Position numbers and translations under genes: made by a program. A DNA stretch of 64,000 bases from assembly GCA_043758065.1 (NCBI GenBank), contig JAYVOE010000025.1, positions 6,158 to 70,157 on the forward strand. The letters are read 5' to 3'. Shown one piece after another: positions 2,922 to 33,068 of this stretch (position 1 is the first letter of the stretch; every line of letters begins with the position of its first letter). Source of the DNA: Spartobacteria bacterium (GTDB lineage: Bacteria; Verrucomicrobiota; Verrucomicrobiia; Chthoniobacterales; DASVRZ01). Below the pieces are notes generated by a model that was not told where the DNA came from, ran no database searches, and saw only the letters and a list, made by a program, of their open reading frames with translations.

Positions 2922-2950
2922 TCCCAATAAGAACAGGTTGCAGCAACCTG
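2922..2950 (-). terminator. possible intrinsic terminator after trmL
   Basis: On the minus strand CAGGTTG-CTG-CAACCTG (2934-2950) is followed by TTCTTATT. The loop is very tight. Confidence 0.35.
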
Positions 2951-2954
2951 CCAA

Positions 2955-3407: not shown

Positions 3408-3418
3408 CTGAATAGGAT

Positions 3419-3436
3419 GGAACTCGAATGAAAAAT
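3419..3436 (+). repeat. interspersed motif copy GGAACTCGAATGAAAAAT
   Basis: Read directly. Intergenic, between trmL and the RRM-gene terminator. Confidence 0.8.
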
Positions 3437-3443
3437 CGAAAAC

Positions 3444-3475
3444 AAAAAACCCGCCATCGGTGAGGATGACGGGTT
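3444..3475 (-). terminator. intrinsic terminator of the RRM-protein gene
   Basis: The stem pairs 3450-3458 with 3465-3473 (9 bp, 1 mismatch). On the minus strand it is followed by TTTTTT (reverse complement of 3444-3449). Confidence 0.6.
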
Positions 3476-3484
3476 GGTTGTTAG

Positions 3485-3513
3485 TTTTTTTCAGTCGAGT
3501 TGCAGTGAACTCT
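3485..3513 (-). repeat. interspersed motif copy, long 3'-UTR form (GAGTTCACTGCAACTCGACTGAAAAAAA on the minus strand)
   Basis: Read directly. It starts 4 nt after the RRM-gene stop and lies upstream of its terminator. Confidence 0.8.
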
Positions 3514-3515
3514 TG

Positions 3516-4220: not shown

Positions 4221-4461
4221 ATAGGTGTGTGAATATGACAAAGCGCACACTGGATGCTGACTCCGCGGGAGTGCGTCGGGAGCCGAATGCTCGCGTGCGA
4301 CAAGGCGGAGTCTTTGTCAAAGAACCGGCGTCCACCGTGTGGCCATCTATCGCGCCGGAAATTTTCCTGCCCAGTGAGAATGGCACGCGTCGGTGCCGGA
4401 AGGCCGAGTATGTAACACACACGACGCCCCATCGCAAGCGAGTGATACCGATGGAACTCCC

Positions 4462-5340: not shown

Positions 5341-5391
5341 GTCGCCGATTCCGTTGCGCGGACGGAAGCAGATGCGAAGCTACCGGCCTTC

Positions 5392-6360
5392 ATGAGTTGG
5401 TTTTCGTTCAATCCGCACGATTTCAGCATCTCGTTTCTCAGCATCCTTTTCGAGGGCGTGCCCTACCTTTTTCTCGGCACGCTGCTTTCCGGTTTGATCG
5501 ACGCATTTCTGCCCGCGCAAGCGCTCGAACGCTGGCTGCCGAAGAACTCCGCGCTCGCCATCGGAGTTGCAGGCATATTGGGATTTTTCCTCCCGATGTG
5601 CGAATGCGGCGTCATTCCCGTCATCCGGCGGATGCTAAAAAAAGGCCTGCCGATTGGTCCGGCCGTCACGTATTTGCTCGCGTCGCCGATCATTAATCCC
5701 GTCGTCGCGCTCAGCACTTACGCGGCTTTTCGCGGACAAGAACCTGCCACGGTTTTGGCGTTTCGGATGATACTCGGATTTCTCATCGCGTGCACTTTCG
5801 GAGCCATCGTCCTGCGGCTCCCGAAGAAAAATATCCTTCTCCCGAGTCTGCTGGAACCCGAATCAAAAACCCGGCAGCCCAATCTTTTCGCCGCGATCCC
5901 CGACGACAACGCGACGCTGGAAAACCTTGCCGACACGGCACGGCCATCCGTTCGCAGCCGACTTCTGGCCGCATTGCGAACCGCGTCCTTCGATTTTCTG
6001 GACGTCGCATTTTACCTGATCATCGGCGCGATGTTGGCGGCGCTTTTCAACACCGCGATCAATCGCGAGCAAGTCATCCAACCGCTCGCCGCCAATCTCT
6101 GGCTGGCGACCTATTCGTTGGAAAGTCTCGCCGCCGTTCTCTCGCTTTGCAGCACGAGCGACGCTTTTATCGCTGCCAATTTCGTCGCCTTTCCGCTCGC
6201 CGCCAAACTCGCCTTTCTCGTTCTCGGCCCGATGATGGACGTCAAACTTTTCCTCATGTATGGTCTGGTTTTCCGCAAAAAATTCACCATCGCCATGGCT
6301 GCGAGCCTCTTCATTGGCATCGGACTCCTCTGTATTTTTCTCGCCCAAACGTTGCCTTAG
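5392..6360 (+). CDS. multi-pass membrane permease (COG0701/ArsP-like, CECG motif)
   Basis: 322 aa and strongly hydrophobic, with the motif LPMCECGVIPVIRRM. Confidence 0.75.
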   Translation: MSWFSFNPHDFSISFLSILFEGVPYLFLGTLLSGLIDAFLPAQALERWLPKNSALAIGVAGILGFFLPMCECGVIPVIRRMLKKGLPIGPAVTYLLASPIINPVVALSTYAAFRGQEPATVLAFRMILGFLIACTFGAIVLRLPKKNILLPSLLEPESKTRQPNLFAAIPDDNATLENLADTARPSVRSRLLAALRTASFDFLDVAFYLIIGAMLAALFNTAINREQVIQPLAANLWLATYSLESLAAVLSLCSTSDAFIAANFVAFPLAAKLAFLVLGPMMDVKLFLMYGLVFRKKFTIAMAASLFIGIGLLCIFLAQTLP

Positions 6361-6368
6361 ATTCCGCT

Positions 6369-6386
6369 CCAACTCCGATGAAAAAT
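6369..6386 (+). repeat. interspersed motif copy CCAACTCCGATGAAAAAT (contains the ATG at 6378)
   Basis: Read directly. Confidence 0.8.
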
Positions 6387-7259
6387 AAAATCGCCTCGGT
6401 TCTCGCTCCGATCACCCTGCTCGAATGGGGCGGCATTTTACTGTATTTCTACCTGAGCGGACGCCTCAGCGCATTCCTGCATCCGTCATTTCGCCCACAA
6501 GTTTTGATCGCCGGACTGGCGCTCGTCAGTTGCGGCGTGCTCTTGTTTCTCACCCGAAAACAAACCGCGATCTGCGAGTGCGGCATCGTCGAAAATTGCC
6601 CGGAACAAACGCGCTCGCCGCTGATCGCGAGCTGGCTTTTTCCCGTAATGCTTTTGCTCCCGCTCGCCATCGCAGCGTTGTTCACGCGCGACAGCTACGG
6701 AGCCAATATTTTGGCAACGCGCGGGATCGTGGAGAACGCCGCCGCTCTGCCGGGATTGGCCGACAAGATGAGTAAAACGCTTCCAAAAATTGTGTCGCCA
6801 ACCATCGAACCCGCGCTCCCAGATACAGCTGCAACTCCGCTGCAAACTGCGGAATCGACGGCGGAAGATTTTTTCAAACCCGACGCGAATGGCAACATCC
6901 AGGTGAACGTCGCGGATCTGCTTTACGCTGCTGCCGAGCCGACTTTGCGCGCGCCGTTCGCGGGCAAATCGGCCGAGATCATCGGCCAGTTCATGCCCGC
7001 GAAATCGAACAATGCAGCTGGGAATCGATTCAAACTCGTCCGTCTTTTTATGACCTGCTGCGCGGCCGACGCCCAGCCCGTTTCGCTTTTGATCGAGCAT
7101 GATGCCGCATTGCCGATTCCGGCAAAAGTGAGCGACATGGCCTGGACAAAAGTGATCGGCGATATCTCGTTTCCGTTGGAAAACGGACGCACGATCGCGG
7201 TGATCCACGCGAAGAAAATCGAGCCGGTCGATCCGCCGGATGAGACGATGCTTTACTAG
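6378..7259 (+). CDS. TIGR03943-like membrane protein, the usual partner of the preceding permease
   Basis: ATG 6378 (MKNKIASVLAPITLLEWGG...) is in frame within track ORF 5790-7259. It has N-terminal TM helices and a C-terminal FMTCCAADAQP motif. Confidence 0.65.
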   Translation: MKNKIASVLAPITLLEWGGILLYFYLSGRLSAFLHPSFRPQVLIAGLALVSCGVLLFLTRKQTAICECGIVENCPEQTRSPLIASWLFPVMLLLPLAIAALFTRDSYGANILATRGIVENAAALPGLADKMSKTLPKIVSPTIEPALPDTAATPLQTAESTAEDFFKPDANGNIQVNVADLLYAAAEPTLRAPFAGKSAEIIGQFMPAKSNNAAGNRFKLVRLFMTCCAADAQPVSLLIEHDAALPIPAKVSDMAWTKVIGDISFPLENGRTIAVIHAKKIEPVDPPDETMLY

Positions 7260-7333
7260 AAAAGCGCATCGATTTCCCCTCGCAAAATCCGTCGTAATCT
7301 GATTCCATTGCAGTTCGTCATGAACACTCCCCA

Positions 7334-7765
7334 ATGAAAGGCTGGCCGCTGCTTCGGGCATTCGTGACGTTGCTGGTGCTGCTTCTCGCGGGACTTCCAT
7401 TGCGCTCGTTGACGCGCGAAAAAGTGAGTCGAGTTGCAATCGATTCACCGGTTCCGGCGACGGAGAAATTGACAATCGATCTGACATTTACCCAGCCGCC
7501 GGAGACGTTTTCGCTGAAGTTTCTCGGCCAGGATGTGCTGGTCGGCGGCGACGAACCGGCGTTTGAAGCGGGCACCGTTTTCGATGCGCATTATCCGAAG
7601 GAAGGCATCGATCTGGTGTTCGACGGAACGTGGCCGAGTCGTTTTCAAAAAGTCGGCGTGAGCGTGAAAGTCACGCGCGGCGACGGCTCGGAACAGACCC
7701 AGACGATTTGGGGAAAACGGAATATTTTTGACGTCCTGACGTTTACCGGAAAGGAGCAACCCTGA
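7334..7765 (+). CDS. hypothetical exported/anchored protein (143 aa)
   Basis: It has an N-terminal hydrophobic segment (MKGWPLLRAFVTLLVLLLAGLPL) and overlaps the next gene by 1 nt (TGATG). Confidence 0.5.
   Translation: MKGWPLLRAFVTLLVLLLAGLPLRSLTREKVSRVAIDSPVPATEKLTIDLTFTQPPETFSLKFLGQDVLVGGDEPAFEAGTVFDAHYPKEGIDLVFDGTWPSRFQKVGVSVKVTRGDGSEQTQTIWGKRNIFDVLTFTGKEQP
7419..7437 (-). repeat. interspersed motif copy (GCAACTCGACTCACTTTTT on the minus strand)
   Basis: Read directly. Antisense within the 143-aa gene. Confidence 0.8.
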
Positions 7766-8502
7766 TGGCAAATCATCGTCTGATCGTTTCGGATTTGACG
7801 GTTTCCTACAACCGCGTTCCGGCGTTGCATCACATCGAATTTGAGACGTCGTGCGGAGAATGCGTCGCACTGATGGGACCGAATGGCGCGGGCAAGACGA
7901 CGCTCCTGAAAACGCTCGCCGGATTGCTGAAATCTGAGTCGGGTTCCATCGTATTCCACGGGCGGGAGATCGTTGGCGCGTCCACCGATTTCGCGTATTT
8001 GCCACAGCGCGAAAACATTGACTGGGATTTCCCACTGACCGTGCGCGGGCTGGTGGAAATGGGCCGTTATTTGCGCGTTGGCTGGGCGCGGCGATTTCGG
8101 AATCTGGATGACGCTGCCGTCGATGCGGCGATTGACCAAATGCAACTGGGCGACCTGCAAGCGCGGCAGATTTCCGCACTGTCGGGAGGTCAGCAGCAGC
8201 GCGCATTTCTAGCGCGTTCGCTCGCGCAGGAAGCGCATGTTTTTTTGCTGGATGAACCTTTTACCGGACTCGATGAACCGGCCCGCGCAAATCTTTCCGG
8301 GACGTTGCGAGATCTAGCGAAGGACGGGAAATTGATCATCGCGTCGCATCACGATTTATCCACGGTGAAGGGACTGTTTTCCGGGGTCTTGTTGTTGAAC
8401 GGCGAGCTGATTGCGGGCGGCAAAACGAGCACGGTATTCACGCGCAAAAATATTGAGCGGACTTACAGCACATTGGCGTTTTCAGGAAGGAAGCACGGAT
8501 GA
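7765..8502 (+). CDS. metal (Zn/Mn-type) ABC transporter ATP-binding protein
   Basis: Walker A GPNGAGKTT, signature LSGGQQQR and Walker B FLLDEP are present. This is the clearest of the few starts checked with a canonical SD (AAGGAG at 7750-7755). Confidence 0.85.
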   Translation: MANHRLIVSDLTVSYNRVPALHHIEFETSCGECVALMGPNGAGKTTLLKTLAGLLKSESGSIVFHGREIVGASTDFAYLPQRENIDWDFPLTVRGLVEMGRYLRVGWARRFRNLDDAAVDAAIDQMQLGDLQARQISALSGGQQQRAFLARSLAQEAHVFLLDEPFTGLDEPARANLSGTLRDLAKDGKLIIASHHDLSTVKGLFSGVLLLNGELIAGGKTSTVFTRKNIERTYSTLAFSGRKHG

Positions 8503-9437
8503 ACTGGCTCGAACCGTTGCGTCACGATTTCATGCTCCGCGCGCTCTACGGCTGCGCGATCATCGGTTTTCTGAATGGATTTTTGGGGGCGTTCATCGTT
8601 CTGCGACGTCTGGCGCTGATGGCGGATGCGCTCTCGCATTCGCTCCTGCCGGGATTGGCAATTGGAGTGATTTTGTTTGGGCTGGCACCGATGGGTTTAT
8701 TTTTCGGGGCTCTGACGGCTGCGCTGTTTGTTGCCGTGGGCTCACAACTGATTTCGCGAAACTCCCGCATCAAGGAAGATACGTCGCTGGGCATTCTTTA
8801 TACGGTCGCGTTTTCCATCGGGGTGATCTTGCTCAATAAAGTCCACTCGCCGATCTCGCTGCATCATTATTTATTTGGCAACATCCTCGGACTTTCCAAC
8901 GACGATCTTTGGATGAACTACGGCATCGCGCTCGTGATTATTCCGACCGTTGTGGCGCTGCAGCGTCCGTTGTTGCTCTGCTTGTTTGATCCGACCGTGG
9001 CCAAGTCGCAGGGGATTCGGGTTGAGGCACTCAATTATCTCCTCATGGCCATGCTTGTTCTCACGATGATTTCGACGCTGCAAGCGGTTGGCGTGGTGCT
9101 CGCGCTGGGCCTGCTGATTGCGCCTGCTGCGACGATTTACCTGCTCAGCGATTCGGTCAACAAGATGTTCTGGGGTGGAGGATTTCTCGGCGCATTCGGC
9201 TCGTGCGCCGGACTGATGCTTTCCTATTGGTGCGATCTGGAGACGGGCCCGTGCATTGTTCTCTTACTCGGATGTATTTTCCTCGCAGCCTATCTTTTCG
9301 GGCCGCGCTACGGCATCATGGCGAAATTCCTCCGGCGCAGACATTTCCACCATGAATCTCTGGAGCGTTGGAGAGACACGGATGCATCGGCCGACAGATC
9401 AGAGTCCCGCGTGCAGCGAATTGAACCCCATGGTTAA
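8499..9437 (+). CDS. metal ABC transporter permease (ABC-3 / ZnuB-MntB family)
   Basis: A 312-aa multi-TM protein with an ATGA overlap with the ATPase gene. Its sequence pattern is typical of the ABC-3 family. Confidence 0.85.
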   Translation: MNWLEPLRHDFMLRALYGCAIIGFLNGFLGAFIVLRRLALMADALSHSLLPGLAIGVILFGLAPMGLFFGALTAALFVAVGSQLISRNSRIKEDTSLGILYTVAFSIGVILLNKVHSPISLHHYLFGNILGLSNDDLWMNYGIALVIIPTVVALQRPLLLCLFDPTVAKSQGIRVEALNYLLMAMLVLTMISTLQAVGVVLALGLLIAPAATIYLLSDSVNKMFWGGGFLGAFGSCAGLMLSYWCDLETGPCIVLLLGCIFLAAYLFGPRYGIMAKFLRRRHFHHESLERWRDTDASADRSESRVQRIEPHG

Positions 9438-9545
9438 TATTCAACAAACCTGCGAGCCATTCTATTCATCGCAGAAAAAGTTTCCATTCGAGTTCCAGTC
9501 GATTCACTCTTGCTGGACCGCTCAAAAAACAAGACCAACTCACAT

Positions 9546-9560
9546 TGGCACATCGTTTGC
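9546..9560 (+). promoter_or_regulatory. sigma-54 (-24/-12) promoter candidate for glnB
   Basis: TGGCAC-atcgt-TTGC matches the TGGCAC-N5-TTGC consensus exactly. The GG (9547-9548) and GC (9559-9560) are 12 nt apart, and the site lies ~90 nt upstream of ATG 9650. Confidence 0.55.
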
Positions 9561-9592
9561 TTACTGCGGAACCGGAGCAGGTCGCCAAATGA

Positions 9593-9988
<396 letters not shown>

Positions 9989-10010
9989 GTTTTAAGCTGT
10001 AGTCATTTGA

Positions 10011-10049
10011 AATAGCCGACGAGGGAAACTTCGTCGGCTATTTATTTTT
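10011..10049. terminator. bidirectional intrinsic terminator
   Basis: A 12-bp perfect stem AATAGCCGACGA/TCGTCGGCTATT (10011-10022 / 10031-10042) is followed by TATTTTT. It sits between convergent genes. Confidence 0.7.
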
Positions 10050-11037
10050 CCAGCACATTTGCTTTGGACGCAGCCATGTCCGCGAGTTGATCCTGATTCA
10101 TCCGTGGCGAAAAAAGATACACGACCGCTCCCACCAGTCCGTAGAAAGTGAAGAGCAAAAACCCGAGCAGGGAAACGAGCGCCGCGACTTCCGGCGGAGT
10201 GCCACACAGATCACCGAGCAACCGCTCAAAAAGTCCTTCGCGAATGCCCAATCCAGCCACGCTTACTGGCAGTGACGTGATGATCGTCACGATCGGCATC
10301 AGCGAGAAGATTTGACTCAAACTCGCCTCTGCGTGGACCGCGCGCGAGGCGCAGTAAAACCCCGCGTAGTAGGAAAACAGCACCGGTATCGAAAGAAAAA
10401 GAGCGCGGGAAAATCCGGCGCCATCACGGGTGAACAAATTCCAAGCCTGGGCCAGCCGCTCGATCTGGTGATGCCCTGGCAGCCACTGCGGAACTTGCGA
10501 CCGTCTGCTAAAATAGAACGAAAGAAAAATCACCAGCGCCATTACGAAGCAGAACACGAGCGTGCTGAAAAGCAGCCCGGACGTGGCCGGCGTTTGCGTG
10601 AGCCATCGATAGTTGATCCAGGTCCCAATGGCCGCAGCCAGGATCAGTGGAATGAGCCCCGTCAAACGATCAGCGACCAAGGTCAAAAATGCGCCACGAC
10701 GATGATCGGGATATTCTCGCCAGAGATAATACATTCTCGCGAGATCCCCGCCGGTTGTTCCCGGCAGAAACGTGTTAAAGAAAAGCCCAATAAAAAACCA
10801 CCGCGTGATTTGACTCCAACTCGCATGAATTCCCTGTGCGTGTAGAAAAATCCGCCACCGGAGAATGCCGGATATTTCTCCCACCCCAGCGAATAGCAAC
10901 CCCAACGCGAGCCACGAAAAATCTGCGCTGCGAAACGCATTCAGCATCGACTGACGCTTTGCGGCATCGTGAAAAAGCCACGTTAGCACGCCGACGGTCA
11001 TCGCGATTTGCAGCACTTGAAAGAAGCGCCGTTTCAT
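10042..11037 (-). CDS. flippase-like / lysylphosphatidylglycerol-synthase TM-region family membrane protein
   Basis: MKRRFFQVLQIAMTVGVLTW... from ATG 11037. It has ~8 TM helices and a GTTGGDLARMYYL motif. Its start overlaps the upstream stop (ATGA). Confidence 0.7.
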   Translation of the reverse strand: MKRRFFQVLQIAMTVGVLTWLFHDAAKRQSMLNAFRSADFSWLALGLLFAGVGEISGILRWRIFLHAQGIHASWSQITRWFFIGLFFNTFLPGTTGGDLARMYYLWREYPDHRRGAFLTLVADRLTGLIPLILAAAIGTWINYRWLTQTPATSGLLFSTLVFCFVMALVIFLSFYFSRRSQVPQWLPGHHQIERLAQAWNLFTRDGAGFSRALFLSIPVLFSYYAGFYCASRAVHAEASLSQIFSLMPIVTIITSLPVSVAGLGIREGLFERLLGDLCGTPPEVAALVSLLGFLLFTFYGLVGAVVYLFSPRMNQDQLADMAASKANVLEK

Positions 11038-11813
11038 AGCTGTTCGCGCAGCCAGTCGATCCGCCTCCGCAACTCGGGACGTGTCAGGTAACTCGTCCGC
11101 ACCGCCCACCACAAAGCCCCCAATCCCACCGGCAGTCGCAGGTGTGTTTTCAGTTCGGCGATCACCGCGGAATCCTCGTATCCCGCGAGGAACGCCGGAC
11201 TCAGTTCCCGCCAGAGAGAATTATCGGCGCGGCCGACCAGATCGAGGAGCAGCACGAGCAAATCATCTGCGTGACGTTCCACTGCCGTGAGCCGCGTTCG
11301 ATGTCTCGTCTCGAAATCGATCCAGTTGACGCTGCCGTTTTCTTCATCAAAAAGAACGTTTCCCAGATGCGGATCGCCGTGGGAAAACCAGTCGGCGCTG
11401 AGTGGATTCCAAGTCCGATGCATTTTTAAAAACGCGGCACCGACCTGTTCCATAACACTGGAACTCAACTCACTTTTCCTGAGCAAATCCACCAAGTCCA
11501 ATCCGGGAAGATCCTCCGCGTAAACCGAGTCGGCTCCGAGAACGCCAACGTTGCGGTGCGGTCCGTTGAGTACACGAAATGCTCGCACCTCGTGGTCTTG
11601 CCAGGTCTCGTTGGTCGGCAACACCTCGACCGGATTTCCTGCCAGCCAGAAGAATCCATTGGCGACCGGAATGAGCCACCGGCTGAGGCGCGTGCGGCGT
11701 TTCACCCAAACGCTCTGCCCGCCCATCTCCACGCGGGAAACATCGTTGATGCGGATACGATCAATCCGGTTGCCGGTGCGCGCAAGCCAGCCGGTGGTTG
11801 AAAGAGTCTGCAC
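11034..11813 (-). CDS. protein-kinase-like fold protein, Kdo/WaaP lipopolysaccharide-kinase-like
   Basis: It has the catalytic-loop-like HGDPHLGNVLFD and WIDFE motifs. The start is GTG at 11813, and it is translationally coupled to the downstream membrane protein. Confidence 0.6.
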   Translation of the reverse strand: MQTLSTTGWLARTGNRIDRIRINDVSRVEMGGQSVWVKRRTRLSRWLIPVANGFFWLAGNPVEVLPTNETWQDHEVRAFRVLNGPHRNVGVLGADSVYAEDLPGLDLVDLLRKSELSSSVMEQVGAAFLKMHRTWNPLSADWFSHGDPHLGNVLFDEENGSVNWIDFETRHRTRLTAVERHADDLLVLLLDLVGRADNSLWRELSPAFLAGYEDSAVIAELKTHLRLPVGLGALWWAVRTSYLTRPELRRRIDWLREQL

Positions 11814-11896
11814 GCACCCATTTCGACCCGGCGACGGTAGTGAGTCAAGTGGACGTTGACCCGCACTCCACGCCGCTTACACTGTCCGTCCGCACC

Positions 11897-13174
11897 ATGA
11901 AAATCTTGCGCTACACCGATCCCGACTTCGCCTCAGAAATGGCGAAGCTGAATCGTTTCGCCGCTCCGTCGCCAGCGGTGCAAAGCACGGTCGCGAAAAT
12001 TCTCGCAGACGTAGCGGAAAACGGTGATGCAGCGTTACTGAAATACACTGCGAAATTCGGCGGGCCGACGCTTGCCCCAGAGCAAATCCGAGTCAGCGAA
12101 AAAGAACTGAGCGGAGTTACAGTCGATTCTGCAACCACGGAAACGCTGAAGCTGTGCCATGCGAATGTGGCGGAATTTGCGCGCGCCTCATTGCGAAAAA
12201 ACTGGTCGATGCAAAACGCGCAGGGCGTTTCTGTCGGCGAACGTTTCGATGCTTTTCAACGTGTCGGAATTTACGTCCCGGGCGGAACGGCACCGCTCGT
12301 TTCCACAGCTTTAATGACGGTCACGCTGGCTGCGGTTGCGGGCGTTCCAGAAATCGTTGTGACCACTCCGGCGGCTGCGGATGGCACGATTCATCCGGCA
12401 GTGCTGTCGGCGTTGAAGCTGGCCGGAGCGACCGAAATTTATCGCGTCGGCGGAGCACAAGCGATCGCCGCGCTGGCTTTTGGAACGAAAACAATCCCGC
12501 CCGTGCTGAAGATTTTTGGTCCGGGCAATGCGTATGTGATCGAAGCCAAGCGGCAGGTGTTTGGGAAGGTCTCGATCGATCAACTTCCTGGTCCGAGTGA
12601 GATTCTAATCATCGCCGATGAGACTGCGAATCCCGCGTGGATGGCGGCGGATTTACTCGCGCAAGCTGAACACGGTCACGATAGCGTGATCGGGTTTCTG
12701 ACAAATTCTGAATCGATTCTAACTCGACTGAAAAACGAAATTGAGCGACAAGCGGCCACACTTTCGCGACAAAAATACCTGCTCGAAGTGCTGGAGAAAA
12801 ATGCCTTCCTCATTCTCTGCCAGGATCTCGATCAAGCCGTTCATCTGGCGAATCATTTCTCCAGCGAACATCTCACCATCGTCGCACAAAACGCGTCAGA
12901 ATTGGCGCAACGGATTCATACCGCAGGCGCCATTTTTCTGGGTAACTGGTCGCCCGTTGCGGGTGGCGATTATCTCGCCGGACCGAGCCATACCTTGCCG
13001 ACTGGCGGTGCTGGAAAATCCTTTGCCGGGCTGACGGTGGATCAATTTCAACGCCGTACTAGCATTGTGGAATTTGATGAAACCTCGTTGCGAATTTCAG
13101 CACCCATCATCGCCGCCGCCGCCGCGCTGGAAGGCCTCGACGCCCACGCGCAATCCGCCACCATTCGACTCTAA
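11897..13174 (+). CDS. hisD: histidinol dehydrogenase
   Basis: MKILRYTDPDF... from ATG 11897. It carries conserved HisD blocks (GIYVPGGTAPLVST, AQAEHGHDS, AGDYLAGPSHTLPT). Confidence 0.9.
   Translation: MKILRYTDPDFASEMAKLNRFAAPSPAVQSTVAKILADVAENGDAALLKYTAKFGGPTLAPEQIRVSEKELSGVTVDSATTETLKLCHANVAEFARASLRKNWSMQNAQGVSVGERFDAFQRVGIYVPGGTAPLVSTALMTVTLAAVAGVPEIVVTTPAAADGTIHPAVLSALKLAGATEIYRVGGAQAIAALAFGTKTIPPVLKIFGPGNAYVIEAKRQVFGKVSIDQLPGPSEILIIADETANPAWMAADLLAQAEHGHDSVIGFLTNSESILTRLKNEIERQAATLSRQKYLLEVLEKNAFLILCQDLDQAVHLANHFSSEHLTIVAQNASELAQRIHTAGAIFLGNWSPVAGGDYLAGPSHTLPTGGAGKSFAGLTVDQFQRRTSIVEFDETSLRISAPIIAAAAALEGLDAHAQSATIRL
12719..12736 (+). repeat. interspersed motif copy CTAACTCGACTGAAAAAC (inside hisD, encodes LTRLKN)
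   Basis: Read directly. Confidence 0.8.
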
Positions 13175-13191
13175 CTCCGCTCACTTTTTTT
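13160..13191 (+). repeat. interspersed motif, long 5' form ACCATTCGACTCTAACTCCGCTCACTTTTTTT (hisD stop to gltX start)
   Basis: Read directly. 27 of 31 positions are identical to the reverse complement of 47570-47600. Confidence 0.85.
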
Positions 13192-14511
13192 ATGTCCACA
13201 CGCGTTCGTTTTGCTCCATCACCCACCGGATACCTCCATGTCGGAGGCGCCCGCACCGCTCTTTTCAATTGGCTTTTCGCACGGCACACCGGTGGGAAAC
13301 TCGTTCTCCGGATCGAGGACACCGACAAGGCGCGCAACACCGAAGAAGCCGTCCAAGCCATCTACGACGGACTCACCTGGCTGGGTTTAGATTGGGATGA
13401 AGGTCCGATGAAAAGTGGGGATCATGGACCGTATTTTCAAAGTCAGCGCGACGATATTTATCAACGCTATTTTGATCGGCTCGTGGCAGCCGGGCGCATC
13501 TACGAAGATCACGGGACGATGCGTTTCAAAACCTATCGCGGCAACACGACCGTCGAAGATGTCATCTGTGGGAAAGTTGTTTTCGATATGTCCAATCCCG
13601 TGACCAATCCCGACATGACCATCCGGCGGCCGGACGGTGGTTGGATTTTTCATTTCGTCAATGTCGTGGACGATATCGAGATGAAAATCACCCACGTGAT
13701 TCGTGGTGAGGACCATCTTTCCAACACGCCGAAGCATGTGCAAATCTACGAAGCGCTCGGCGAAAAACCGCCACTGTTTGGTCACATCCCGCTGATCTTA
13801 AACAAAGACGGATCGAAGATGAGCAAGCGCGATCAGGGTGCCAGCGTCCAGAGTTATATCGAGGGTGGATATGCGCCGGAAGCGGTGCTGAATTATCTCT
13901 GTTTGTTAGGATGGTCGCCAAAGGACAACCGCGAAAAAATCGACATCAGCGAGGTCGTTCCGCTCTTCGAGTTGGAGAACGTGAATCGTCGCAACGCGCA
14001 TTTCGATCTCGATAAATGCTTTTGGCTGAACGGCCAGTATATCGCGCAAATGTCCATCGAGCGGTTCCGCGATTTAAGTCTGCCGTTCATCGAAAAGGCC
14101 GGCATTCAGATCGACGATCCGGCGAAGTTGTTGGAGGTGCTCGCGATTGTAAAAGAGAAGATCAAACACTTCGGCGACGTGCCGGATTGGATTTCGTATT
14201 TCTTCACCGACAGCTATCCATACGACGAAGCGAGCGTGGAAAAGACGCTGAAAAAAACCGGCGCGCTCGCCCATTTACAGGCGCTGCACGATGCGTATGC
14301 AAACCTCGCAGATTGGACTGCAACTGCGCTGGAAATTTCGCTCAAGGAAACTGCGACCGAGCGCGGCGTGAAATCGGGCGAACTGATTCACCCGGCGCGC
14401 GTCGCATCCACCGGCTGTTCCGTCGGCCCGAGCCTGTATCATTTGCTGGAAGTCCTCGGCAGAGATACGGTTCTAACTCGATTCAAAAACACCGTCGCGC
14501 GATTCGGCTAA
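13192..14511 (+). CDS. gltX: glutamate--tRNA ligase
   Basis: It has the HIGH-type motif PTGYLHVGGARTALFN and the KMSKS-type motif GSKMSKRD. Confidence 0.9.
   Translation: MSTRVRFAPSPTGYLHVGGARTALFNWLFARHTGGKLVLRIEDTDKARNTEEAVQAIYDGLTWLGLDWDEGPMKSGDHGPYFQSQRDDIYQRYFDRLVAAGRIYEDHGTMRFKTYRGNTTVEDVICGKVVFDMSNPVTNPDMTIRRPDGGWIFHFVNVVDDIEMKITHVIRGEDHLSNTPKHVQIYEALGEKPPLFGHIPLILNKDGSKMSKRDQGASVQSYIEGGYAPEAVLNYLCLLGWSPKDNREKIDISEVVPLFELENVNRRNAHFDLDKCFWLNGQYIAQMSIERFRDLSLPFIEKAGIQIDDPAKLLEVLAIVKEKIKHFGDVPDWISYFFTDSYPYDEASVEKTLKKTGALAHLQALHDAYANLADWTATALEISLKETATERGVKSGELIHPARVASTGCSVGPSLYHLLEVLGRDTVLTRFKNTVARFG
14473..14490 (+). repeat. interspersed motif copy CTAACTCGATTCAAAAAC (near the gltX 3' end)
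   Basis: Read directly. Confidence 0.8.
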
Positions 14512-14521
14512 GCGCCCAGCC

Positions 14522-15397
14522 ATGAAGCCGGTTTACACGATTGACGATCTTCGGGATTGGCGTGAACCGCAGCTGCGTTACGCCGTGCTGGGCGATCCCG
14601 TGGCGCACTCCGCGTCGCCCGCGATGCACAACGCCGTGCTGGAAAATCTCGGCTCGCCGGATCGTTATTGTCGGTTGCACATTTTGCCGGAACAACTCGC
14701 GGAAGCCATCGCGCTTCTAGCCGAAGCCGGCTTTAAGGGAGTCAATCTAACCATCCCCCACAAGACGCAGATTCTTCCGATGTTAGACGAAATCGCCGAG
14801 CACTCTAGAATGCTCGGCGCAGTCAACACCATTGCTTTTCGCGAAGGCAGACTCGTCGGCACTAACACCGATGGCCCGGGAATCGTACGGGCGATCCGCG
14901 AGGAATTCGGCATCGAACTCGAAGATCAGCGCATCCTGATCCTCGGTGCGGGCGGCGGCGCAGGTCGCGCGATTGCAACGCAATGTTTTCTCGAAAGATG
15001 TGGCAGCCTGACGCTCGCAAATCGCACTCAGGAAAAGATCATCGCGCTGGCAGATTCGCTGAAGGCGCAAACCGTGGCGATGAATCCCGAGGCACTGGCG
15101 CCGGTAATGTTGGAGATCGATTTGATCATCAACGCGTCGTCGCTCGGCATGAAAACGGGCGATGCTTCTCCCGTGCCGTCATATCTCTTGAACTCGAATC
15201 AATTTATTTTCGACACGATCTACGTGGGAAAAGAAACTCCATTGGAGTTAGAAGCAAATGCAGCCGGGGCGAAATCGGCGAATGGACTTTCGCTTTTGCT
15301 CCATCAAGGAGTACTAGCGTTGGAGTTTTGGCTCGGACGCGCAATTCCCGTCGAAGTCATGCGGGCGGGACTGCAACGTTACATAGATACAAAATAA
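14522..15397 (+). CDS. aroE: shikimate dehydrogenase
   Basis: It has HSASPAMHNA, NLTIPHK and the NADP-binding glycine loop GAGGGAGRAIA. Confidence 0.85.
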   Translation: MKPVYTIDDLRDWREPQLRYAVLGDPVAHSASPAMHNAVLENLGSPDRYCRLHILPEQLAEAIALLAEAGFKGVNLTIPHKTQILPMLDEIAEHSRMLGAVNTIAFREGRLVGTNTDGPGIVRAIREEFGIELEDQRILILGAGGGAGRAIATQCFLERCGSLTLANRTQEKIIALADSLKAQTVAMNPEALAPVMLEIDLIINASSLGMKTGDASPVPSYLLNSNQFIFDTIYVGKETPLELEANAAGAKSANGLSLLLHQGVLALEFWLGRAIPVEVMRAGLQRYIDTK

Positions 15398-16669
15398 CAG
15401 CGGCGGTAGACTAATGCTCAGGCTCAGCAGTGGCGATGGTTGCCACGCCGACCACCACGGTGTGGATTCCCACCCGAGGAGCGCTAGAAAAATAGTGGCC
15501 GAAAGAACGAACCAGCCGTGTGCGCGCCGCATGGCCGCGAATGGCAAAATCCACGTGACATACCAGGGATGCACGACGGTTGAGAAAACCAGACACGTTC
15601 CCATGGCCCAGAGCAGCGCGCGCCGCCAATCGCGCCAGCGAAACCATGCCAACAGGCTGACCGCAGATATGACTCCAACTCCGATCAAGTTATACCAGCC
15701 GTTTTTTTGCGTAGGGTTGTTCCAGAGAAATCGCTCGGAAATCCACCAGATAAAATCATTGAAGCGCGAGACATAATTGAAGGCGCGGAACGAATCGAAG
15801 ATGGGAGTTTTCGGGAATCCGAATGCGAGTGATGACATTCCTAATGGAAGCAGAGCCAGAGGCAGAACGACAAAACGTGAACCGAGTGCGAGTGCTATCA
15901 CGGGTATGAAAATCAGCGGTACTAGCTTGATCGAAATGGCGACGCCGAGTGAGAAAGTCGCGACCGAAGCCCAGCCCCAGTGCATGGGTTTTCTTCCAAG
16001 AGGATTGCCGCGATGCAACGCGTAGATCGAAAGAAGGAGTGGAGCGAGCATCCAGCTATCGAAATGGCCCGCGCCAGCAAAGGAATAAATCACCAATGGA
16101 TTCCACGCGTACCATGCGGTGTCGCGACAGCGAGCCTGGCCCGTGTTCACGCGCAACAGAAGATATACGACGCAGAGGTCGGCAAAAAGACAGGCGAGTT
16201 TGATTGCAATCTGCGAGGGGCCAAAGACTGTTAGCAGTTTAAGAATCAACTCTGCGCCCGGTGGATAAATGGCGGACCATTTAGCATGATTGATCAGGCT
16301 CCAGCTCGCGTCACGAAGGTGCGCCAAGGATGGTGAATCGGGTGCGAGAAGATAGGGATTGATGCCCTGCCATTGGATGCGGCCCTCCCAAAGATAACGA
16401 TGCATGTCGTCTCCGGCCGGGAAAAAAAGCGCGATGACGCGGAACAAAATGGTGGCCGACCAAAACATTTTGATTCGAGTTGCAGGCGTATGAAACGGAT
16501 AGGTGCGGAGGGCGCAGAAATAGCAGGCGGTCGCCAAAAGCATGGCCGCGACGAAATAAAAAACGTGTCCGTGTTGCGAGAAGTCACCGAACGGAATCGC
16601 CGCGATGAATGCGACGAGCATTCCCGCCAGCCAGCGAGTCGTCAGCGCACCTCCGCCTCCGGTGCTCAC
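15314..16669 (-). CDS. GT-C-fold integral-membrane glycosyltransferase-like protein (DUF2029/PMT-like)
   Basis: 451 aa with more than 10 TM helices and an acidic loop (AGDDMHRYLWEG). The GTG start overlaps the upstream stop (GTGA). The 3' end overlaps convergent aroE by 84 nt. Confidence 0.55.
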   Translation of the reverse strand: MSTGGGGALTTRWLAGMLVAFIAAIPFGDFSQHGHVFYFVAAMLLATACYFCALRTYPFHTPATRIKMFWSATILFRVIALFFPAGDDMHRYLWEGRIQWQGINPYLLAPDSPSLAHLRDASWSLINHAKWSAIYPPGAELILKLLTVFGPSQIAIKLACLFADLCVVYLLLRVNTGQARCRDTAWYAWNPLVIYSFAGAGHFDSWMLAPLLLSIYALHRGNPLGRKPMHWGWASVATFSLGVAISIKLVPLIFIPVIALALGSRFVVLPLALLPLGMSSLAFGFPKTPIFDSFRAFNYVSRFNDFIWWISERFLWNNPTQKNGWYNLIGVGVISAVSLLAWFRWRDWRRALLWAMGTCLVFSTVVHPWYVTWILPFAAMRRAHGWFVLSATIFLALLGWESTPWWSAWQPSPLLSLSISLPPLLFCIYVTLQSRPHDFDGNCASEPKLQR

Positions 16670-19242
16670 GTTCTGTCGTCGGTGCGTTTCAGACTGGATC
16701 GATTGGCCGCTACTTCAACGAGTTCCGCGACGCGACGTTTCAGCCGCCAGGCCCGAACGAGTTGGTAAAGCACGAAGACGGCGAAGACCGTTTTTAGCCA
16801 GTAGTCGTTGTTAGAAGTCGCCAGCGAACGGTAAAGCAGGATGGAAAAAAAGATGAAGTTGATGAGGAAAGTTGTCACCGTTGGCTTGGCGCCGAGGTTG
16901 ACGCGCGTGAGACATTTGGGTCCGCCGTGATACTCGGTGACGCTACCAAATTTGATGATCCACCAGAAGTTTCCGTAGATTTGGATGTCCCAATTTTTCC
17001 ATCCGGTGTCGGTGCTGTAGCTCCAATTTTCAGTTTCAAGCGATGAGCAAACTTCTGTGATGAGCGCCTCGCGGCCCTGACCAGTTTCGTTCCAGAAAAT
17101 GAGATTTCCAAAGCCGCTGTATGGTTTGAGAGTCTTGTAATCGGCCTCGTGGGTGGCGATGACTGCGCGTGGTGTTCGTTTGTAAGACATCCACGTGAAG
17201 TAGCGTGCCCACCCGCGCATCAGGGGTTGGGTGAGCGCTAGGAAAACGACTAACAGTCGAGCTCCAATCGTATCGAATTTCGGCTCGATGCGGGCGTTTA
17301 ACATGTAGGAAAGTGCAACCAGAAAAGTGGCGCCAAACATCAGAAACGGCACGATCCGCAAGGTCGGGATTGGCACTGCTAACATGAAAATAAAGAGGGT
17401 CAGCGCGACCCATTCCACGCTACTAACATAGGCAGCGATCTCCGATTGCGGGGCCGGATAAATGGACTGGAAAAGTCCTTGTCCGAAAACGCCGTGGTAA
17501 ATGATTGGTTTTTTGAGGAGCCAATTAAAACGCGGCGTGCCGTAGATCATGCCCTTCCATTTCGCGGTTCCGGTGGGGCCAAAGAAGACGAGGTGCTGAA
17601 AGCGGAGCATGGATTCCGCTTCGCCGTAGCCTTCCTGTTGTTTGCGAAACGCTTGCAACGTAAAGCGCCGGTAGTGCCAGACGATGGCTGCGGGTGAGAA
17701 CGCGATGACGCCGCCATTGGTCTGTAAGCGCCAGCAAAAATCCACGTCGTCGCCCGCTTTGCGATATTCCGGGTCGAATCCGCCGACGCTGTAGAAAGCC
17801 CATTTGTGGAAGGCCATGTTGCAGCCCGGAATGTGTTCGGCAACGACGTCGGTGAGCAAAACGTGACTAGGCCCACCGGGAGCCGCGGCGACAGCGGCTT
17901 GAATCCAATCGACCGCGGGCGGGGAAATATTTGGCCCGCCCACGCCGGCGTAATCGCCGCTGATGAGAGTGCCCACCAGGTAGTAGAGCCAGTCGGGATC
18001 GGCCATGCAGTCGGAGTCGGTGTAGGCGAAAATTTCGCCCGTGGCGGAATGCGCCCCGGTATTGCGGGCGTAGCTCAGGCCCATGTTTTTTTGGACGATG
18101 TTTTGGAAATCGGGCAGGCGGCGTCCGCTGCGTTTGCGAGAGCTTTCGAAGGCGGAGACGAGCGTCTGAGTGTTGTCCTTCGAGCCGTCATCCACCAAGA
18201 CGATTTCGTAATCCGGGTAGTTCAGAAGATCGAGAGACTCGAGACAATCCTTCAACGTTTTCCCGCCGTTGTAAGAACAAACAATTATGGAAACACGCGG
18301 GTATTTTTCCAGTTTCACCCGGCTCGTAACGGGCTCATTTCCGGCGAGGCGATCCTTCAATAAATGAAACGCTTTCTTCGGCTGTCGATCGCGCGTGACC
18401 AAGCCGAAGGCCCAGTCCGTAATCTCCATTCCGCCGGTGAACCATTCATCAGTCCACGCGTAAAAAATCGTTCCAGCCGCGCCGCCTTTCACCACACAAT
18501 CGAGATGCCAGTCGAGAACCTCGGCTTGTTTTTCCTCGGCGTTGCGGATGGTGTCCATGCCGAATTCGCCGAAGATCAGCGGCTTATCGCCGGCGAGATT
18601 TTGCAGCCGCGCCAGATAGCGTTCGAAGTCCGCTCTTCTTTCGAGGTAAACGTTGAAGCTGTAAAAATCGACGTTTTGCGGAAGCAAATATTCCGTCGGC
18701 GGATAGCTGGCGTAGGAAAATAGGGCGTCGGGATCTTGCGCCCGTGCGCATGTAATGAGGTGCTCGACGAATTCTACGACGCGGCCTGCTCCGAGCCAGC
18801 GCACCATTGAGCAGGGGATTTCGTTGCCAACGAGATAACCAAATATCGCAGGATGTCCGGCATTCTTTTTCACTGCTTCCTCGATGGTCTTGACGATTCC
18901 GGCCCGGATTTTTGGTTGGTCGAGAAAGGCGACGTGTTGCGTCCAGGGAATGGAAATAAGCACGCGAATGCCAGCTTCCCCGGCAAGATCGAGGAACCAG
19001 CGCGGCGGTGCATAGTAGATGCGCAGGAGGTTCGCGCCCATCTCTGCCATCAGCCGGAGATCTTCGCGGCTGCGCTCCGGCGAGGCGAAATATTCCCCAT
19101 CGGAGTTCGGGTGAAATGGCCCGTAGGTTACGCCCTTGAGAAAGAATTTCTCATCCCCGGCAAAGAAAAATTTGGCGCGGACTCGCACGCGCGGAAGGTT
19201 GCTCACAGGGGCGAGAGTGGTCGTGAGAGAGGAAGAAATCAA
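16666..19242 (-). CDS. fusion protein: N-terminal TIM-barrel glycoside-hydrolase-like domain, family-2 glycosyltransferase, and C-terminal TM region
   Basis: The GH-like region contains LLRIYYAPP...GYLVGNEIP. The GT2 core contains VSIIVCSYNGGKTL...VLVDDGSKDNT...DSDC. The C-terminus has TM helices. The start (TTG 19242) is uncertain. Confidence 0.7.
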   Translation of the reverse strand: MISSSLTTTLAPVSNLPRVRVRAKFFFAGDEKFFLKGVTYGPFHPNSDGEYFASPERSREDLRLMAEMGANLLRIYYAPPRWFLDLAGEAGIRVLISIPWTQHVAFLDQPKIRAGIVKTIEEAVKKNAGHPAIFGYLVGNEIPCSMVRWLGAGRVVEFVEHLITCARAQDPDALFSYASYPPTEYLLPQNVDFYSFNVYLERRADFERYLARLQNLAGDKPLIFGEFGMDTIRNAEEKQAEVLDWHLDCVVKGGAAGTIFYAWTDEWFTGGMEITDWAFGLVTRDRQPKKAFHLLKDRLAGNEPVTSRVKLEKYPRVSIIVCSYNGGKTLKDCLESLDLLNYPDYEIVLVDDGSKDNTQTLVSAFESSRKRSGRRLPDFQNIVQKNMGLSYARNTGAHSATGEIFAYTDSDCMADPDWLYYLVGTLISGDYAGVGGPNISPPAVDWIQAAVAAAPGGPSHVLLTDVVAEHIPGCNMAFHKWAFYSVGGFDPEYRKAGDDVDFCWRLQTNGGVIAFSPAAIVWHYRRFTLQAFRKQQEGYGEAESMLRFQHLVFFGPTGTAKWKGMIYGTPRFNWLLKKPIIYHGVFGQGLFQSIYPAPQSEIAAYVSSVEWVALTLFIFMLAVPIPTLRIVPFLMFGATFLVALSYMLNARIEPKFDTIGARLLVVFLALTQPLMRGWARYFTWMSYKRTPRAVIATHEADYKTLKPYSGFGNLIFWNETGQGREALITEVCSSLETENWSYSTDTGWKNWDIQIYGNFWWIIKFGSVTEYHGGPKCLTRVNLGAKPTVTTFLINFIFFSILLYRSLATSNNDYWLKTVFAVFVLYQLVRAWRLKRRVAELVEVAANRSSLKRTDDRT

Positions 19243-19284
19243 GAGCCGAGTCAGACGGCGATCACCGACTTCTCTTCAGAAAAC

Positions 19285-19302
19285 TTTTCAGGCGAGTTCC
19301 AC
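19285..19302 (-). repeat. interspersed motif copy (GTGGAACTCGCCTGAAAA on the minus strand; its TGA is the MFS stop)
   Basis: Read directly. Confidence 0.8.
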
Positions 19303-20517
19303 CGCAATCTCCGGGGCGGTTTGAGGGAGAACTTTGATGCAGAGCATACAGGCCGCAGCGAGTAAAAGGATTCCGCTGCTCGCGAGAAACGAGGTGCGCG
19401 CGTAATTTTCCACCGGGTCCAGATAGAGCAGATGAAACGCAATCAGCGGCCCAATGAAGCGCCCGAGACTGCCTGCGGAAGCGATCAGGCCGAGCACGCG
19501 CCCTTGGGTATGCGGGTCGCTACTACGCGAGGCCAGACCGTTCATGGTGGGCGTGACGAGACTATTTCCAATGGAAATTCCGGTGCAGACCAAAAGCAGC
19601 ATCCCCAAATGAGGCGGCGTGTTTGGTAAAAAATACATGCTGATCGCGAGAAGCGTCGCGCCGATGACAGCGAGTTGTTTTTCGATTGGGCGCCGCAAGA
19701 GCCGCCGTAAAACGCCGCCTTGCATCACCACACCGAGGAATCCGACGTAGAAAAAAATCCATCCAGTCTGAGCGATATTGAACCCAAATCGTTTTTCGCA
19801 GAAGAGCGCGAAGAGAGATGTCATAATGGAAAACCCGACAATCGAAGCGAACTGGCTGGCGAGAATCATCGAGATCAAACCGGCGCGACCTTCCGAAAAG
19901 ACTTCGCTCAAACTCGCATTTTCCCGAACACGAGCCCGGACTTCCGGCGTCAGCGTTTCCGGCAGCCGGAACGCAACTAATCCGCAATTGATCAGCGCCA
20001 TCCCAGCCGCAACAAAGAAGGGGAGCGATGGAGAGATTTTTCCGAGCACGCCGCCCATGGCTGGTCCGATCATGAAGCCCAAACCGAATGCGGCCCCGAT
20101 CAAGCCCATCGCTTTGGAGCGATTTTCCTTCGTCGTCACGTCGGCAATGCAGGCCATGCCGGTGGAAATATTTCCGCCACTGGCGCCGTCAATGATGCGT
20201 CCGAGGAGGAGCATCCCGTAGCTTCCGGCAAGTCCGGTGACGAGAAATCCGACGGCGGTTCCGAAGATGCTAATCGTCAAAACCGGCTTGCGCCCGAATC
20301 GGTCGGAGATCTTTCCGAAGATCGGGGAGCAGATCAATTGCAGTAGCGAAAAAATCCCGACGAGCACGCTCATTTGAGTGGGACTCGCATGAAATTTTCC
20401 GCCTTCCGCGTAAACCGGCAGCACCGGAATGACAATCCCAAAACCGATCATATCGATGAAGATCGTTAGAAAAATAAGCGTCAACGGAGACAACGACGAT
20501 TTCTTGGAGTCGGCCAT
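19288..20517 (-). CDS. MFS transporter (drug/H+ antiporter-like)
   Basis: 409 aa with 12 TM helices and the MFS signature GKISDRFGRKPVL. Confidence 0.8.
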   Translation of the reverse strand: MADSKKSSLSPLTLIFLTIFIDMIGFGIVIPVLPVYAEGGKFHASPTQMSVLVGIFSLLQLICSPIFGKISDRFGRKPVLTISIFGTAVGFLVTGLAGSYGMLLLGRIIDGASGGNISTGMACIADVTTKENRSKAMGLIGAAFGLGFMIGPAMGGVLGKISPSLPFFVAAGMALINCGLVAFRLPETLTPEVRARVRENASLSEVFSEGRAGLISMILASQFASIVGFSIMTSLFALFCEKRFGFNIAQTGWIFFYVGFLGVVMQGGVLRRLLRRPIEKQLAVIGATLLAISMYFLPNTPPHLGMLLLVCTGISIGNSLVTPTMNGLASRSSDPHTQGRVLGLIASAGSLGRFIGPLIAFHLLYLDPVENYARTSFLASSGILLLAAACMLCIKVLPQTAPEIAVELA

Positions 20518-20577
20518 GGAGCGGAAGAGATACTCCGAAATTCAGCGAACGCCAAGCACTGGAAATACGCGCGGAAA

Positions 20578-20595
20578 TTTTCAGTCGAGTTCCAT
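20578..20595 (-). repeat. interspersed motif copy (ATGGAACTCGACTGAAAA on the minus strand; its TGA is the U32 stop)
   Basis: Read directly. Confidence 0.8.
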
Positions 20596-22977: not shown

Positions 22978-23036
22978 CGATATCTAGGCAGTAGCTCGAC
23001 AGGCGGAATTTCCATCCCTAGTTTGCAAACCTGCTC

Positions 23037-23711: not shown

Positions 23712-23713
23712 CT

Positions 23714-24094: not shown

Positions 24095-24101
24095 CCCGTG
24101 C

Positions 24102-33016: not shown

Positions 33017-33068
33017 AACGAACCGCGAGATTACCACGAAAAGTGACCGGAGTCACATCCGACTCTGG

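Follow-up and report, generated by a model that had tools for sequence, protein, structure and literature searches.

The DNA sequence analysed here is a stretch of 64,000 nt from the genome of a Spartobacteria bacterium (contig JAYVOE010000025.1 of GenBank assembly GCA_043758065.1, positions 6,158 to 70,157 of the forward strand), which is called the window throughout. A short sequence recurs in it at gene junctions such as hisD-gltX and rhodanese gene-sufE, and these junction copies are probably ordinary members of a hyper-abundant 29-bp DNA motif which saturates this Chthoniobacterales genome. The junction phenomenon is best explained, with good though not full confidence, as a by-product of the accumulation of the motif. 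By analogy with the uptake signal sequences (USS) of Pasteurellaceae and the DNA uptake sequences (DUS) of Neisseriaceae, the most likely role of the motif would be that of a self-DNA tag in DNA uptake or recombination. Our more tentative proposal is that it may be a DNA-uptake-type "self" recognition sequence, the first outside the Proteobacteria, in an uncultured Chthoniobacterales lineage and caught while invading a genome.

The window is 100% identical to contigs of two independent assemblies (ENA ERZ27314315 and Logan SRR23617222) and is therefore not an assembly artefact. Homologues of GltX, the rhodanese protein and the U32 peptidase assign it to the Chthoniobacterales, Verrucomicrobiota, and Pfam supports the gene names hisD, MFS, U32 and mnmA. 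The organism, a soil bacterium, has been met in metagenome assemblies only. Gene start positions are approximate.

A motif matrix was built iteratively from the flanks of every AACTC[CG] in the window and converged on about 29 informative positions, reading wSAwTnSnnTSnAACTCSnnTSA followed by four or five A or T (w, A or T; S, C or G). At a threshold of at least 12 bits the matrix found 155 copies in the 64 kb, compared with 2.1 in dinucleotide-type shuffles, and at least 18 bits was reached by 120 copies, compared with none in the shuffles. The density is about 2.4 copies per kb, or approximately one copy per 400 bp; the copies cover a fraction of 0.069 of the window and are divided between the two strands as given in Table 1. 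Allowing at most one mismatch, CTCACTTTTT occurred 14 times (3.9 expected), and a 23-nt version of this motif with at most three mismatches occurred seven times (0 expected).

Most of the copies, 107 of the 155 (69%), lie wholly within open reading frames (ORFs), and all six frames are represented; a further 23 are in purely non-coding DNA, and 25 extend across a gene boundary or a stop codon. The motif is not limited to junctions, a reading which was discarded when the contexts of AACTC[CG] were found to share the 29-nt pattern throughout ORFs. Intragenic copies show no bias of orientation relative to transcription (53 sense versus 49 antisense), and the favoured frame, used by 31 of 56 sense copies, is that in which the conserved letters hold no stop triplet. 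The spacing between copies is more even than random (coefficient of variation 0.73 versus 0.99), with a largest gap of 1.4 kb where 2.3 kb would be expected. We attach a negligible probability to the pattern being a by-product of codon usage, amino-acid repeats or chance: the 155 copies compare with about 2 in the shuffles, they are spread over all six frames and extend to non-coding DNA, and they are missing from relatives whose G+C content and proteins are similar. The observation that fits such an origin is that some weak copies (13389 in GltX and 46860 in the rhodanese gene) lie on conserved coding sequence common to copy-poor relatives.

The original prediction had described the motif from its junctions, as an element that builds whole junctions and supplies stop codons on either strand. 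The sequences quoted for the two junctions were confirmed. The hisD gene ends with ATT CGA CTC TAA, followed by CTCCGCTCACTTTTTTT and the gltX ATG; on the minus strand, the rhodanese gene ends with GGA CTC TAA CTCGCCTCACTTTTT, followed by CGTCTC and the sufE TTG. The 31 nt at 13159-13189 and the reverse complement of 47570-47600 are identical at 27 of 31 positions, as had been reported. On the strand of the motif, TAA at motif positions -1 to 1 is the stop codon of hisD, the rhodanese gene and brnA, and TGA at positions 8 to 10 that of the MFS and U32 genes; on the opposite strand, CTA provides the stop of mnmA and sufE, and TCA that of an outer-membrane protein gene. All eight of these stops, which had been cited, lie within motif copies at the motif positions assigned to them.

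The earlier figure of at least 8 of about 65 genes proved to be too low. For the stop-codon statistics a curated set of 59 genes was used, from which doubtful small ORFs at 61-64 kb had been removed and to which the gene at 6378-7259 had been added. In this set, 15 of 59 stop codons lie wholly within a copy and 20 of 59 touch one. When 155 copies were placed at random in 5000 trials, the means were 3.7 (within) and 4.3 (touching), and the maxima 12 and 13. In the first automatic set of 63 genes, 18 stops were within a copy and 22 touched one; three same-strand stops used TAA at -1 to 1 and three used TGA at 8 to 10, the latter falling to two once a doubtful ORF at 61780-62211 was dropped. Opposite-strand CTA stops numbered three in the automatic set and two after curation, and a dozen other motif positions were used once each. 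The motif does form whole junctions, as the prediction held, and it coincides with stops on both strands well beyond chance, but the copies involved are a minority of a family that lies mostly within ORFs.

Motif coverage amounts to 0.33 in the 15 nt that begin with the stop codon; in the 30 nt ahead of start codons it is 0.25-0.27, and over the initial 90 nt of genes it is at its minimum, 0.01-0.04. In many copies an ATG occupies motif positions 7-9; it is the start codon of the DUF1980 gene (6378) and also begins tsf, brnT and a PHP-domain gene. Seven copies of the TCAnTTTT type end 0-6 nt before a start codon (efp, gltX, mnmA, the 36475 gene, plsY, sufE and the rhodanese gene). This variant, which contains neither ATG nor TGA, is enriched upstream of starts (9 of 16 versus 18 of 102 in ORFs, P=0.002). 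Upstream of starts, copies are in the sense orientation 16 times and antisense 7 times, a weak bias (P=0.09).

The distribution of the motif among related genomes was examined at 80 genome loci around gltX, from Verrucomicrobiota and beyond, and no enrichment was found, with at most two weak matrix matches per locus. Closer relatives were found through homologues of the rhodanese and U32 proteins. The density was 2.37 copies per kb in locus L229 (96.5% nucleotide identity to the window), 2.21 in L225 (76.6% over the whole locus, 81% in a four-way block), 1.97 in L230 (78.6%), and 0.86 and 0.94 in L226 and L231, which belong to one metagenome-assembled genome (GCA_039930045.1; about 75%). It was about 0 in L228 (69%), L232 (72.9%) and L003 (74%). 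A different "dialect" of the motif in L003, the nearest GTDB relative, was looked for by k-mer and context inspection and rejected. The branching of L225, L226 and L228 was taken from pairwise identities in one aligned block, and L229, L230 and L232 were placed by overall identity to the window and motif density.

Locus L226 had 18 copies of at least 12 bits versus 0.2 expected, with lower scores and a poorly developed A/T tract; the copies of L226 and L231 represent a weaker variant, rich in AAGTC and without the A/T tract. The site orthologous to a window copy still scored at least 12 bits in 51 of 53 cases in L229, 22 of 28 in L230, 8 of 38 in L231 and 0 of 29 in L232, the median scores being 24.2, 19.9, 5.8 and -11.3, respectively. 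The intermediate genome therefore holds many half-built or half-decayed sites; the direction of change was deduced from the tree (((window, L229), L225/L230), L226/L231) with outgroups. Nine of 17 copies of L231 have no counterpart in the window; more than one lineage has thus undergone the process.

Scans of public collections with GAWTNNNNTSNAACTCSNNTSAAAA gave 18 viral matches and at least 120 metagenome matches, but nearly all contigs contained one matrix match and three contained two; with chance matches of this kind, the scans speak neither for nor against further carriers. A literature search on uptake sequences or over-represented motifs in Verrucomicrobia or Chthoniobacterales found nothing relevant. 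In L084, a more distant relative without the genome-wide motif, isolated near-matches, AGATTGGCGTGGAACTCGCTTTTATG and TTAACTCC, were seen in the leaders at 11800-11853 (upstream of grpE) and upstream of rpmA; these may be due to chance or be ancestral proto-sites.

Intragenic copies are colinear with orthologous motif-free DNA, and in the intragenic comparisons with L003 every replacement was of equal length, with no indel. The copies arose through point substitution at colinear positions and not through insertion, with one exception at a junction described below. In GltX, the three copies lie on less conserved residues (0.68 versus 0.81 conservation among relatives).

The prediction had offered, as one of two explanations, a spread of the element into gene ends as by a miniature inverted-repeat transposable element (MITE) or a repetitive extragenic palindromic element (REP). 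These comparisons argue against it. The scores at the same site grade -11, 6, 20, 24 across relatives, as stepwise substitution and not presence or absence would give, and orthologous alignments are colinear at essentially all copies, the hisD-gltX region having the same length in L231. Terminal repeats and target duplications were sought at the motif copies and none were found; hairpins and linked subfamilies are likewise missing, 69% of the copies are intragenic, and a unit of 29 nt is not a multiple of three, yet 107 copies lie in intact ORFs. A small mobile element of the MITE, REP or Rickettsia palindromic element (RPE) type, inserting into gene ends and sometimes in frame into genes, is in our opinion very improbable, even though the many dispersed copies of similar length, a partial dyad (TSA...TSA) and one junction with 21 extra nt relative to L003 would be in agreement with it.

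The history of the individual junctions was followed in the same relatives. The TAA of the rhodanese gene is at the same codon in L225, L226 and L228, and L228 has no motif there. The MFS stop is at the same position in L231, as TAA instead of the TGA of the window, in a site without motif (score -20.8). Both of these stops thus predate the motif. The C-terminal lengths of SufE among relatives differ by one to three residues only, and its stop is common to L226. The U32 terminus is shifted by two residues, and the CTGAAAAT stretch at this place is already present in L231 and predates the motif.

The hisD gene gave a different result. Counted from the conserved ATTCGACT, the gltX ATG is equally far away in the window and in L231, without gaps, but HisD of L231 ends RLPIQS-stop, 5 nt before the gltX ATG, and HisD of the window ends RL-stop. 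The site in L231 is a weak partial match, scoring 14.8 versus 30.3 in the window. In this case a new, earlier TAA did come from the motif, because of which HisD is four residues shorter and 12 coding nt have become spacer. It had been suggested that the last residues of the affected proteins might be lineage-specific additions. Among those compared no such addition was found: the rhodanese and MFS stops hold the same position without motif, SufE varies by one to three residues, and HisD lost residues through the TAA of the motif.

Once formed, the copies seem to be retained. Of 30 copies compared between the window and L225, 24 are shared at the orthologous site, and sequence identity is 91.5% at the high-information positions, 75% at the degenerate positions of the motif and 77% in flanking sequence. 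The comparison of the window with L229 showed no change at any of 418 high-information positions, as against 3.55% outside copies and 2.95% at degenerate positions (P=2.7e-7). The informative letters are thus under active maintenance whether the DNA is coding or not, from which we infer selection or biased transmission.

The architecture of the motif was analysed for signs of RNA structure or DNA binding. Correlations are limited to neighbouring positions, the A/T tract is AAAA in some copies and TTTT in others, and several positions accept either C or G. Neither long-range covariation nor linked subfamilies were detected among the window copies, and the fold energy was no better than that of shuffles in seven of eight tested copies, the eighth having a 4-bp stem of -1.6 kcal/mol. 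An Rfam search of the motif gave no family match. A hairpin or RNA motif was rejected on these grounds (neighbour-only correlation, unstable folds, zero Rfam matches). The motif is 29 nt long, asymmetric about its AACTC core and not a perfect palindrome of the HIP1 type. The matrix is similar to itself at a shift of 11 nt (0.138, versus at most 0.055 at every other shift), and the partial dyad TSA...TSA is centred at position -1.

The lack of covariation and folding, together with the 11-nt self-similarity, the dyad and the even spacing, argues for a motif that would be read as double-stranded DNA by a sequence-specific protein, and is neither an RNA element nor a transposon. The putative site would consist of two direct half-sites, spaced by one helical turn (11 bp), and an A/T tract free in orientation; several positions would require just "C or G" or "A or T". 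Resemblance to the IHF-like WATCAANNNNTTR was considered and dropped, as the 3' TTR is not conserved, and GANTC sites (CcrM/HinfI-type) occur only in a minority of variants.

An intrinsic terminator was also excluded. The motif contains no hairpin, and canonical hairpin-plus-T-run terminators adjoin copies, e.g. at 45168-45190 and 44450-44478. The first of these is located between two convergent genes, tsf and DUF6268 (45140-45230), whose 81-nt spacer is fully occupied by a motif copy, the hairpin terminator and a second copy; this second copy provides the stop of one of the two genes.

Two properties are expected of an uptake sequence, over-representation on both strands including genes, and a graded origin by point mutation among relatives, and both were found for the window motif in the 64 kb and the loci of relatives. 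The principal competitor of the uptake reading on the question of why the motif is maintained is an architectural DNA-binding role, in which an abundant protein, nucleoid-associated or chromosome-organising, would bind the motif and ordinary selection would keep it, with no link to uptake. Tandem half-sites with an A-tract are typical of protein binding and bending, the spacing is even, and the copies are conserved at orthologous positions, an argument that has been used for HIP1 (PMC5861425). We nevertheless regard this role as somewhat unlikely: a specificity of about 21 bits at roughly 10^4 sites would be unusual for known nucleoid proteins, there is no candidate protein, and relatives at about 73% identity lack the motif, so that such a role would have to be very recent. 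It competes just with the explanation of maintenance, and not with the account given here for the junctions.

This account, by-product of accumulation, would operate as follows. A DNA word under strong maintenance builds up wherever it is tolerated, and gene ends and short spacers, as the least constrained DNA, would tolerate it best. An existing stop or start codon may act as a ready-made seed for completing a copy, because the conserved letters contain TAA, TGA, CTA, TCA and often ATG; the rhodanese stop, the MFS stop and the DUF1980 start are candidate cases, and for sufE there is similar C-terminal length only. In the sole same-strand frame in which TAA and TGA are in frame, a copy could survive at the very end of a gene alone, where it would become the stop, at times trimming a few residues, as in HisD with its loss of four. 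The local context would then pick the variant, the stop-free and ATG-free TCAnTTTT form being favoured just upstream of starts.

The second explanation of the original prediction was that the motif is selected as a junction signal. Such a signal would act in RNA or at the ribosome, as an unstructured C/U-rich leader with a built-in stop, in coupling, reinitiation, processing or termination. The sharp coverage peaks at stops and in the 30 nt before starts, the seven TCAnTTTT copies 0-6 nt before starts and the enrichment of this variant there speak in its favour, and junction copies fold very weakly (e.g. -0.4 kcal/mol at hisD/gltX). In the leaders of rpsB, tsf and efp, CTAACTCC immediately precedes the ATG (43665-43693 and 44489-44517 for the first two; Table 1 for efp), and these copies, being conserved in L226, are among the few already present in that genome of intermediate density.

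As the cause of the family, a junction signal seems unlikely to us all the same, with 69% of the copies in ORFs, equally conserved there and without sense or antisense bias, and only a weak bias of orientation at boundaries. In addition, the stops occupy many motif positions, in either orientation, true hairpin terminators adjoin copies of a motif that itself lacks a hairpin, and close relatives run the same junctions without it. A signal of the Shine-Dalgarno or coupling type was rejected, most copies being intragenic and in both orientations, and the sense strand being C/U-rich without GGAGG. A junction role of the motif is therefore at most secondary. Since weak structure near the start codon favours translation initiation, a secondary benefit of an unstructured U-rich leader just before the ATG is plausible.

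Several observations weigh against the interpretation preferred here. The coverage at stop codons (0.33) exceeds that of the remaining intergenic DNA (about 0.09-0.13); relaxed constraint may therefore be too little to account for the peak, and the motif may have a function at gene ends. The oldest common copies are those in the rpsB, tsf and efp leaders, which could point to an origin as an expression signal. The junction at 6358/6378 has 21 nt extra compared with L003, where the permease and DUF1980 genes overlap by ATGA; these 21 nt complete a motif copy and are the sole clear indel tied to one, and therefore not every copy is purely substitutional. The proposed reason for maintenance is drawn by analogy; no competence protein was found among about 30 window proteins scanned. 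Finally, the evidence base is 64 kb of this genome and about 110 kb of DNA from the closest relatives.

The motif was compared with known abundant genomic sequences. Its sequence is unrelated to USS, DUS and HIP1, of which DUS and HIP1 are both shorter and less degenerate. The USS of Pasteurellaceae have a 9-bp core in an extended motif of roughly 29-32 bp with two A/T tracts. In H. influenzae, 65% of USS are within ORFs, and they tend to lie on residues of low conservation and towards gene termini (PMC2817400, PMC2346458). Both USS and the window motif are hyper-abundant, on both strands and mostly in ORFs (65% and 69%), and they share the preference for poorly conserved residues, the bias to gene termini, the even spacing, the build-up through point mutation, and a core with helically phased A/T tracts. 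The window motif differs in its unrelated sequence, its phylum (Verrucomicrobiota), a density about three times higher (2.4 versus about 0.8 per kb) and its range, which is a few closely related species instead of a whole family.

The DUS of Neisseriaceae (10-12 bp, with dialects) are likewise genome-wide, over-represented and enriched at the 3' ends of genes, with graded or variant forms in related species, as seen here in L226 and L231. They are, however, short and often form terminators as inverted pairs, whereas the window motif has no inverted pairs and the hairpin terminators are separate from it. A further difference is that DUS have a known receptor, ComP.

Cyanobacterial HIP1 (GCGATCGC) occurs within and between ORFs, its orthologous sites are conserved beyond neutral expectation, and no evidence was found for a role at the peptide or RNA level (PMC5861425). 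With densities that may be above one copy per gene, it is comparable in order of magnitude to the window motif, and both sequences are hyper-abundant and show conservation of orthologous sites inside ORFs as well as between them. In contrast to a motif of 29 bp that is asymmetric, degenerate and found in a shallow clade, HIP1 is a perfect palindrome of 8 bp that occurs throughout its phylum and is linked to orphan methyltransferases. REP elements and bacterial interspersed mosaic elements (BIMEs), MITEs and RPEs are also short dispersed repeats that can be located at gene ends, RPEs also in genes. They form hairpins or are bounded by inverted repeats and arrive as insertions; REP/BIME and MITEs are extragenic, the exception being RPEs, which add 100-150 nt. 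The copies of the window are unstructured and consist of colinear substitutions.

Table 1. Motif copies located at gene junctions of the window, and the family as a whole (window coordinates).
Feature	Position	Strand	Remarks
Whole motif family	1..64000	both	155 copies of at least 12 bits, 77 on + and 78 on -
Permease/DUF1980 junction copy	6359..6387	+	permease stop TAG 6358-6360; ATG at motif positions 7-9 (6378) is the DUF1980 start
hisD/gltX junction copy	13161..13189	+	hisD stop: TAA 13172-13174; 2 nt between T-tract and gltX ATG 13192
MFS transporter stop copy	19282..19310	-	T-S-A position, TGA 19288-19290 is the stop
U32 peptidase stop copy	20575..20603	-	TGA 20581-20583 is the stop
mnmA stop copy	31894..31922	+	CTA is the TAG stop on the opposite strand, 31904-31906
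efp leader copy	42538..42566	-	ends 2 nt before efp ATG
DUF6268 outer-membrane gene stop copy	45202..45230	+	TCA is the TGA stop on the opposite strand, 45222-45224; window-specific relative to L225
sufE stop copy	46207..46235	+	CTA is the TAG stop on the opposite strand, 46217-46219; partial copy with same stop in L226; deleted in L225
Rhodanese/sufE junction copy	46697..46725	-	TAA 46712-46714 is the rhodanese stop
Non-coding copy ending directly at the rhodanese ATG (47569)	47570..47598	-	present in L225; orthologous site in L226 and L228 without this copy
Second copy near the brnA stop	56919-56947		conserved in L225
brnA antitoxin stop copy	56960..56988	-	TAA 56975-56977 is the stop; conserved in L225

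Other features were noted in the window and in one of the related genomes. A conserved exosortase (EpsH)/EpsI and glycosyltransferase cluster (49524-56921; 360-7738 in L225) has a lower coding score than the remaining window and normal motif density; the motif has therefore also saturated this possibly acquired region. A toxin-antitoxin pair of the brnT/brnA type (56975-57516, minus strand) lies between this polysaccharide cluster and a glyoxalase gene, with motif copies at its start, at its stop and just downstream. A match to the DUF3800-VIII RNA of Rfam (RF03075; 45.8 bits versus a gathering score of 40.2) was found at 2857-2921 on the minus strand, in the spacer between the 2257-2739 ORF and a SpoU methylase gene. 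A single tRNA-Gly(TCC) gene is at 48619-48692 on the plus strand, between an EamA transporter gene and the 48718-49467 ORF. Downstream (3') of efp, L226 contains at 16029-17725 (the same in L227 at 7170-8866) DUF4928, NOV_C and a 56-residue DNA_methylase fragment; the window lacks these, and they may be the remnant of a restriction or defence island.

To our knowledge, hyper-abundant genomic words are established for few groups, with USS in Pasteurellaceae, DUS in Neisseriaceae and HIP1 in cyanobacteria; all of these are old, and we know of the conquest of a genome by such a word from models and not from observation. The window motif is young, being absent at about 73% identity, present at a third of the density and with half-built sites at about 75%, and saturating at 79-97%. 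If it is an uptake-type tag, five related metagenome genomes would form a time series, from 0 through proto-sites and about 0.9 copies per kb to about 2.4 per kb, in which the motif can be seen overwriting coding sequence codon by codon and remodelling stops and junctions. The youth of the motif would make it possible to test mutation with biased transmission against selection, the cost to proteins (HisD minus four residues, and copies placed in variable segments) and the reshaping of gene boundaries. Gene callers and motif finders applied to these genomes will take the motif for a ribosome-binding site, a terminator or a mobile element, and a comparison of gene content between motif-bearing and motif-free genomes should point to the protein that reads it.

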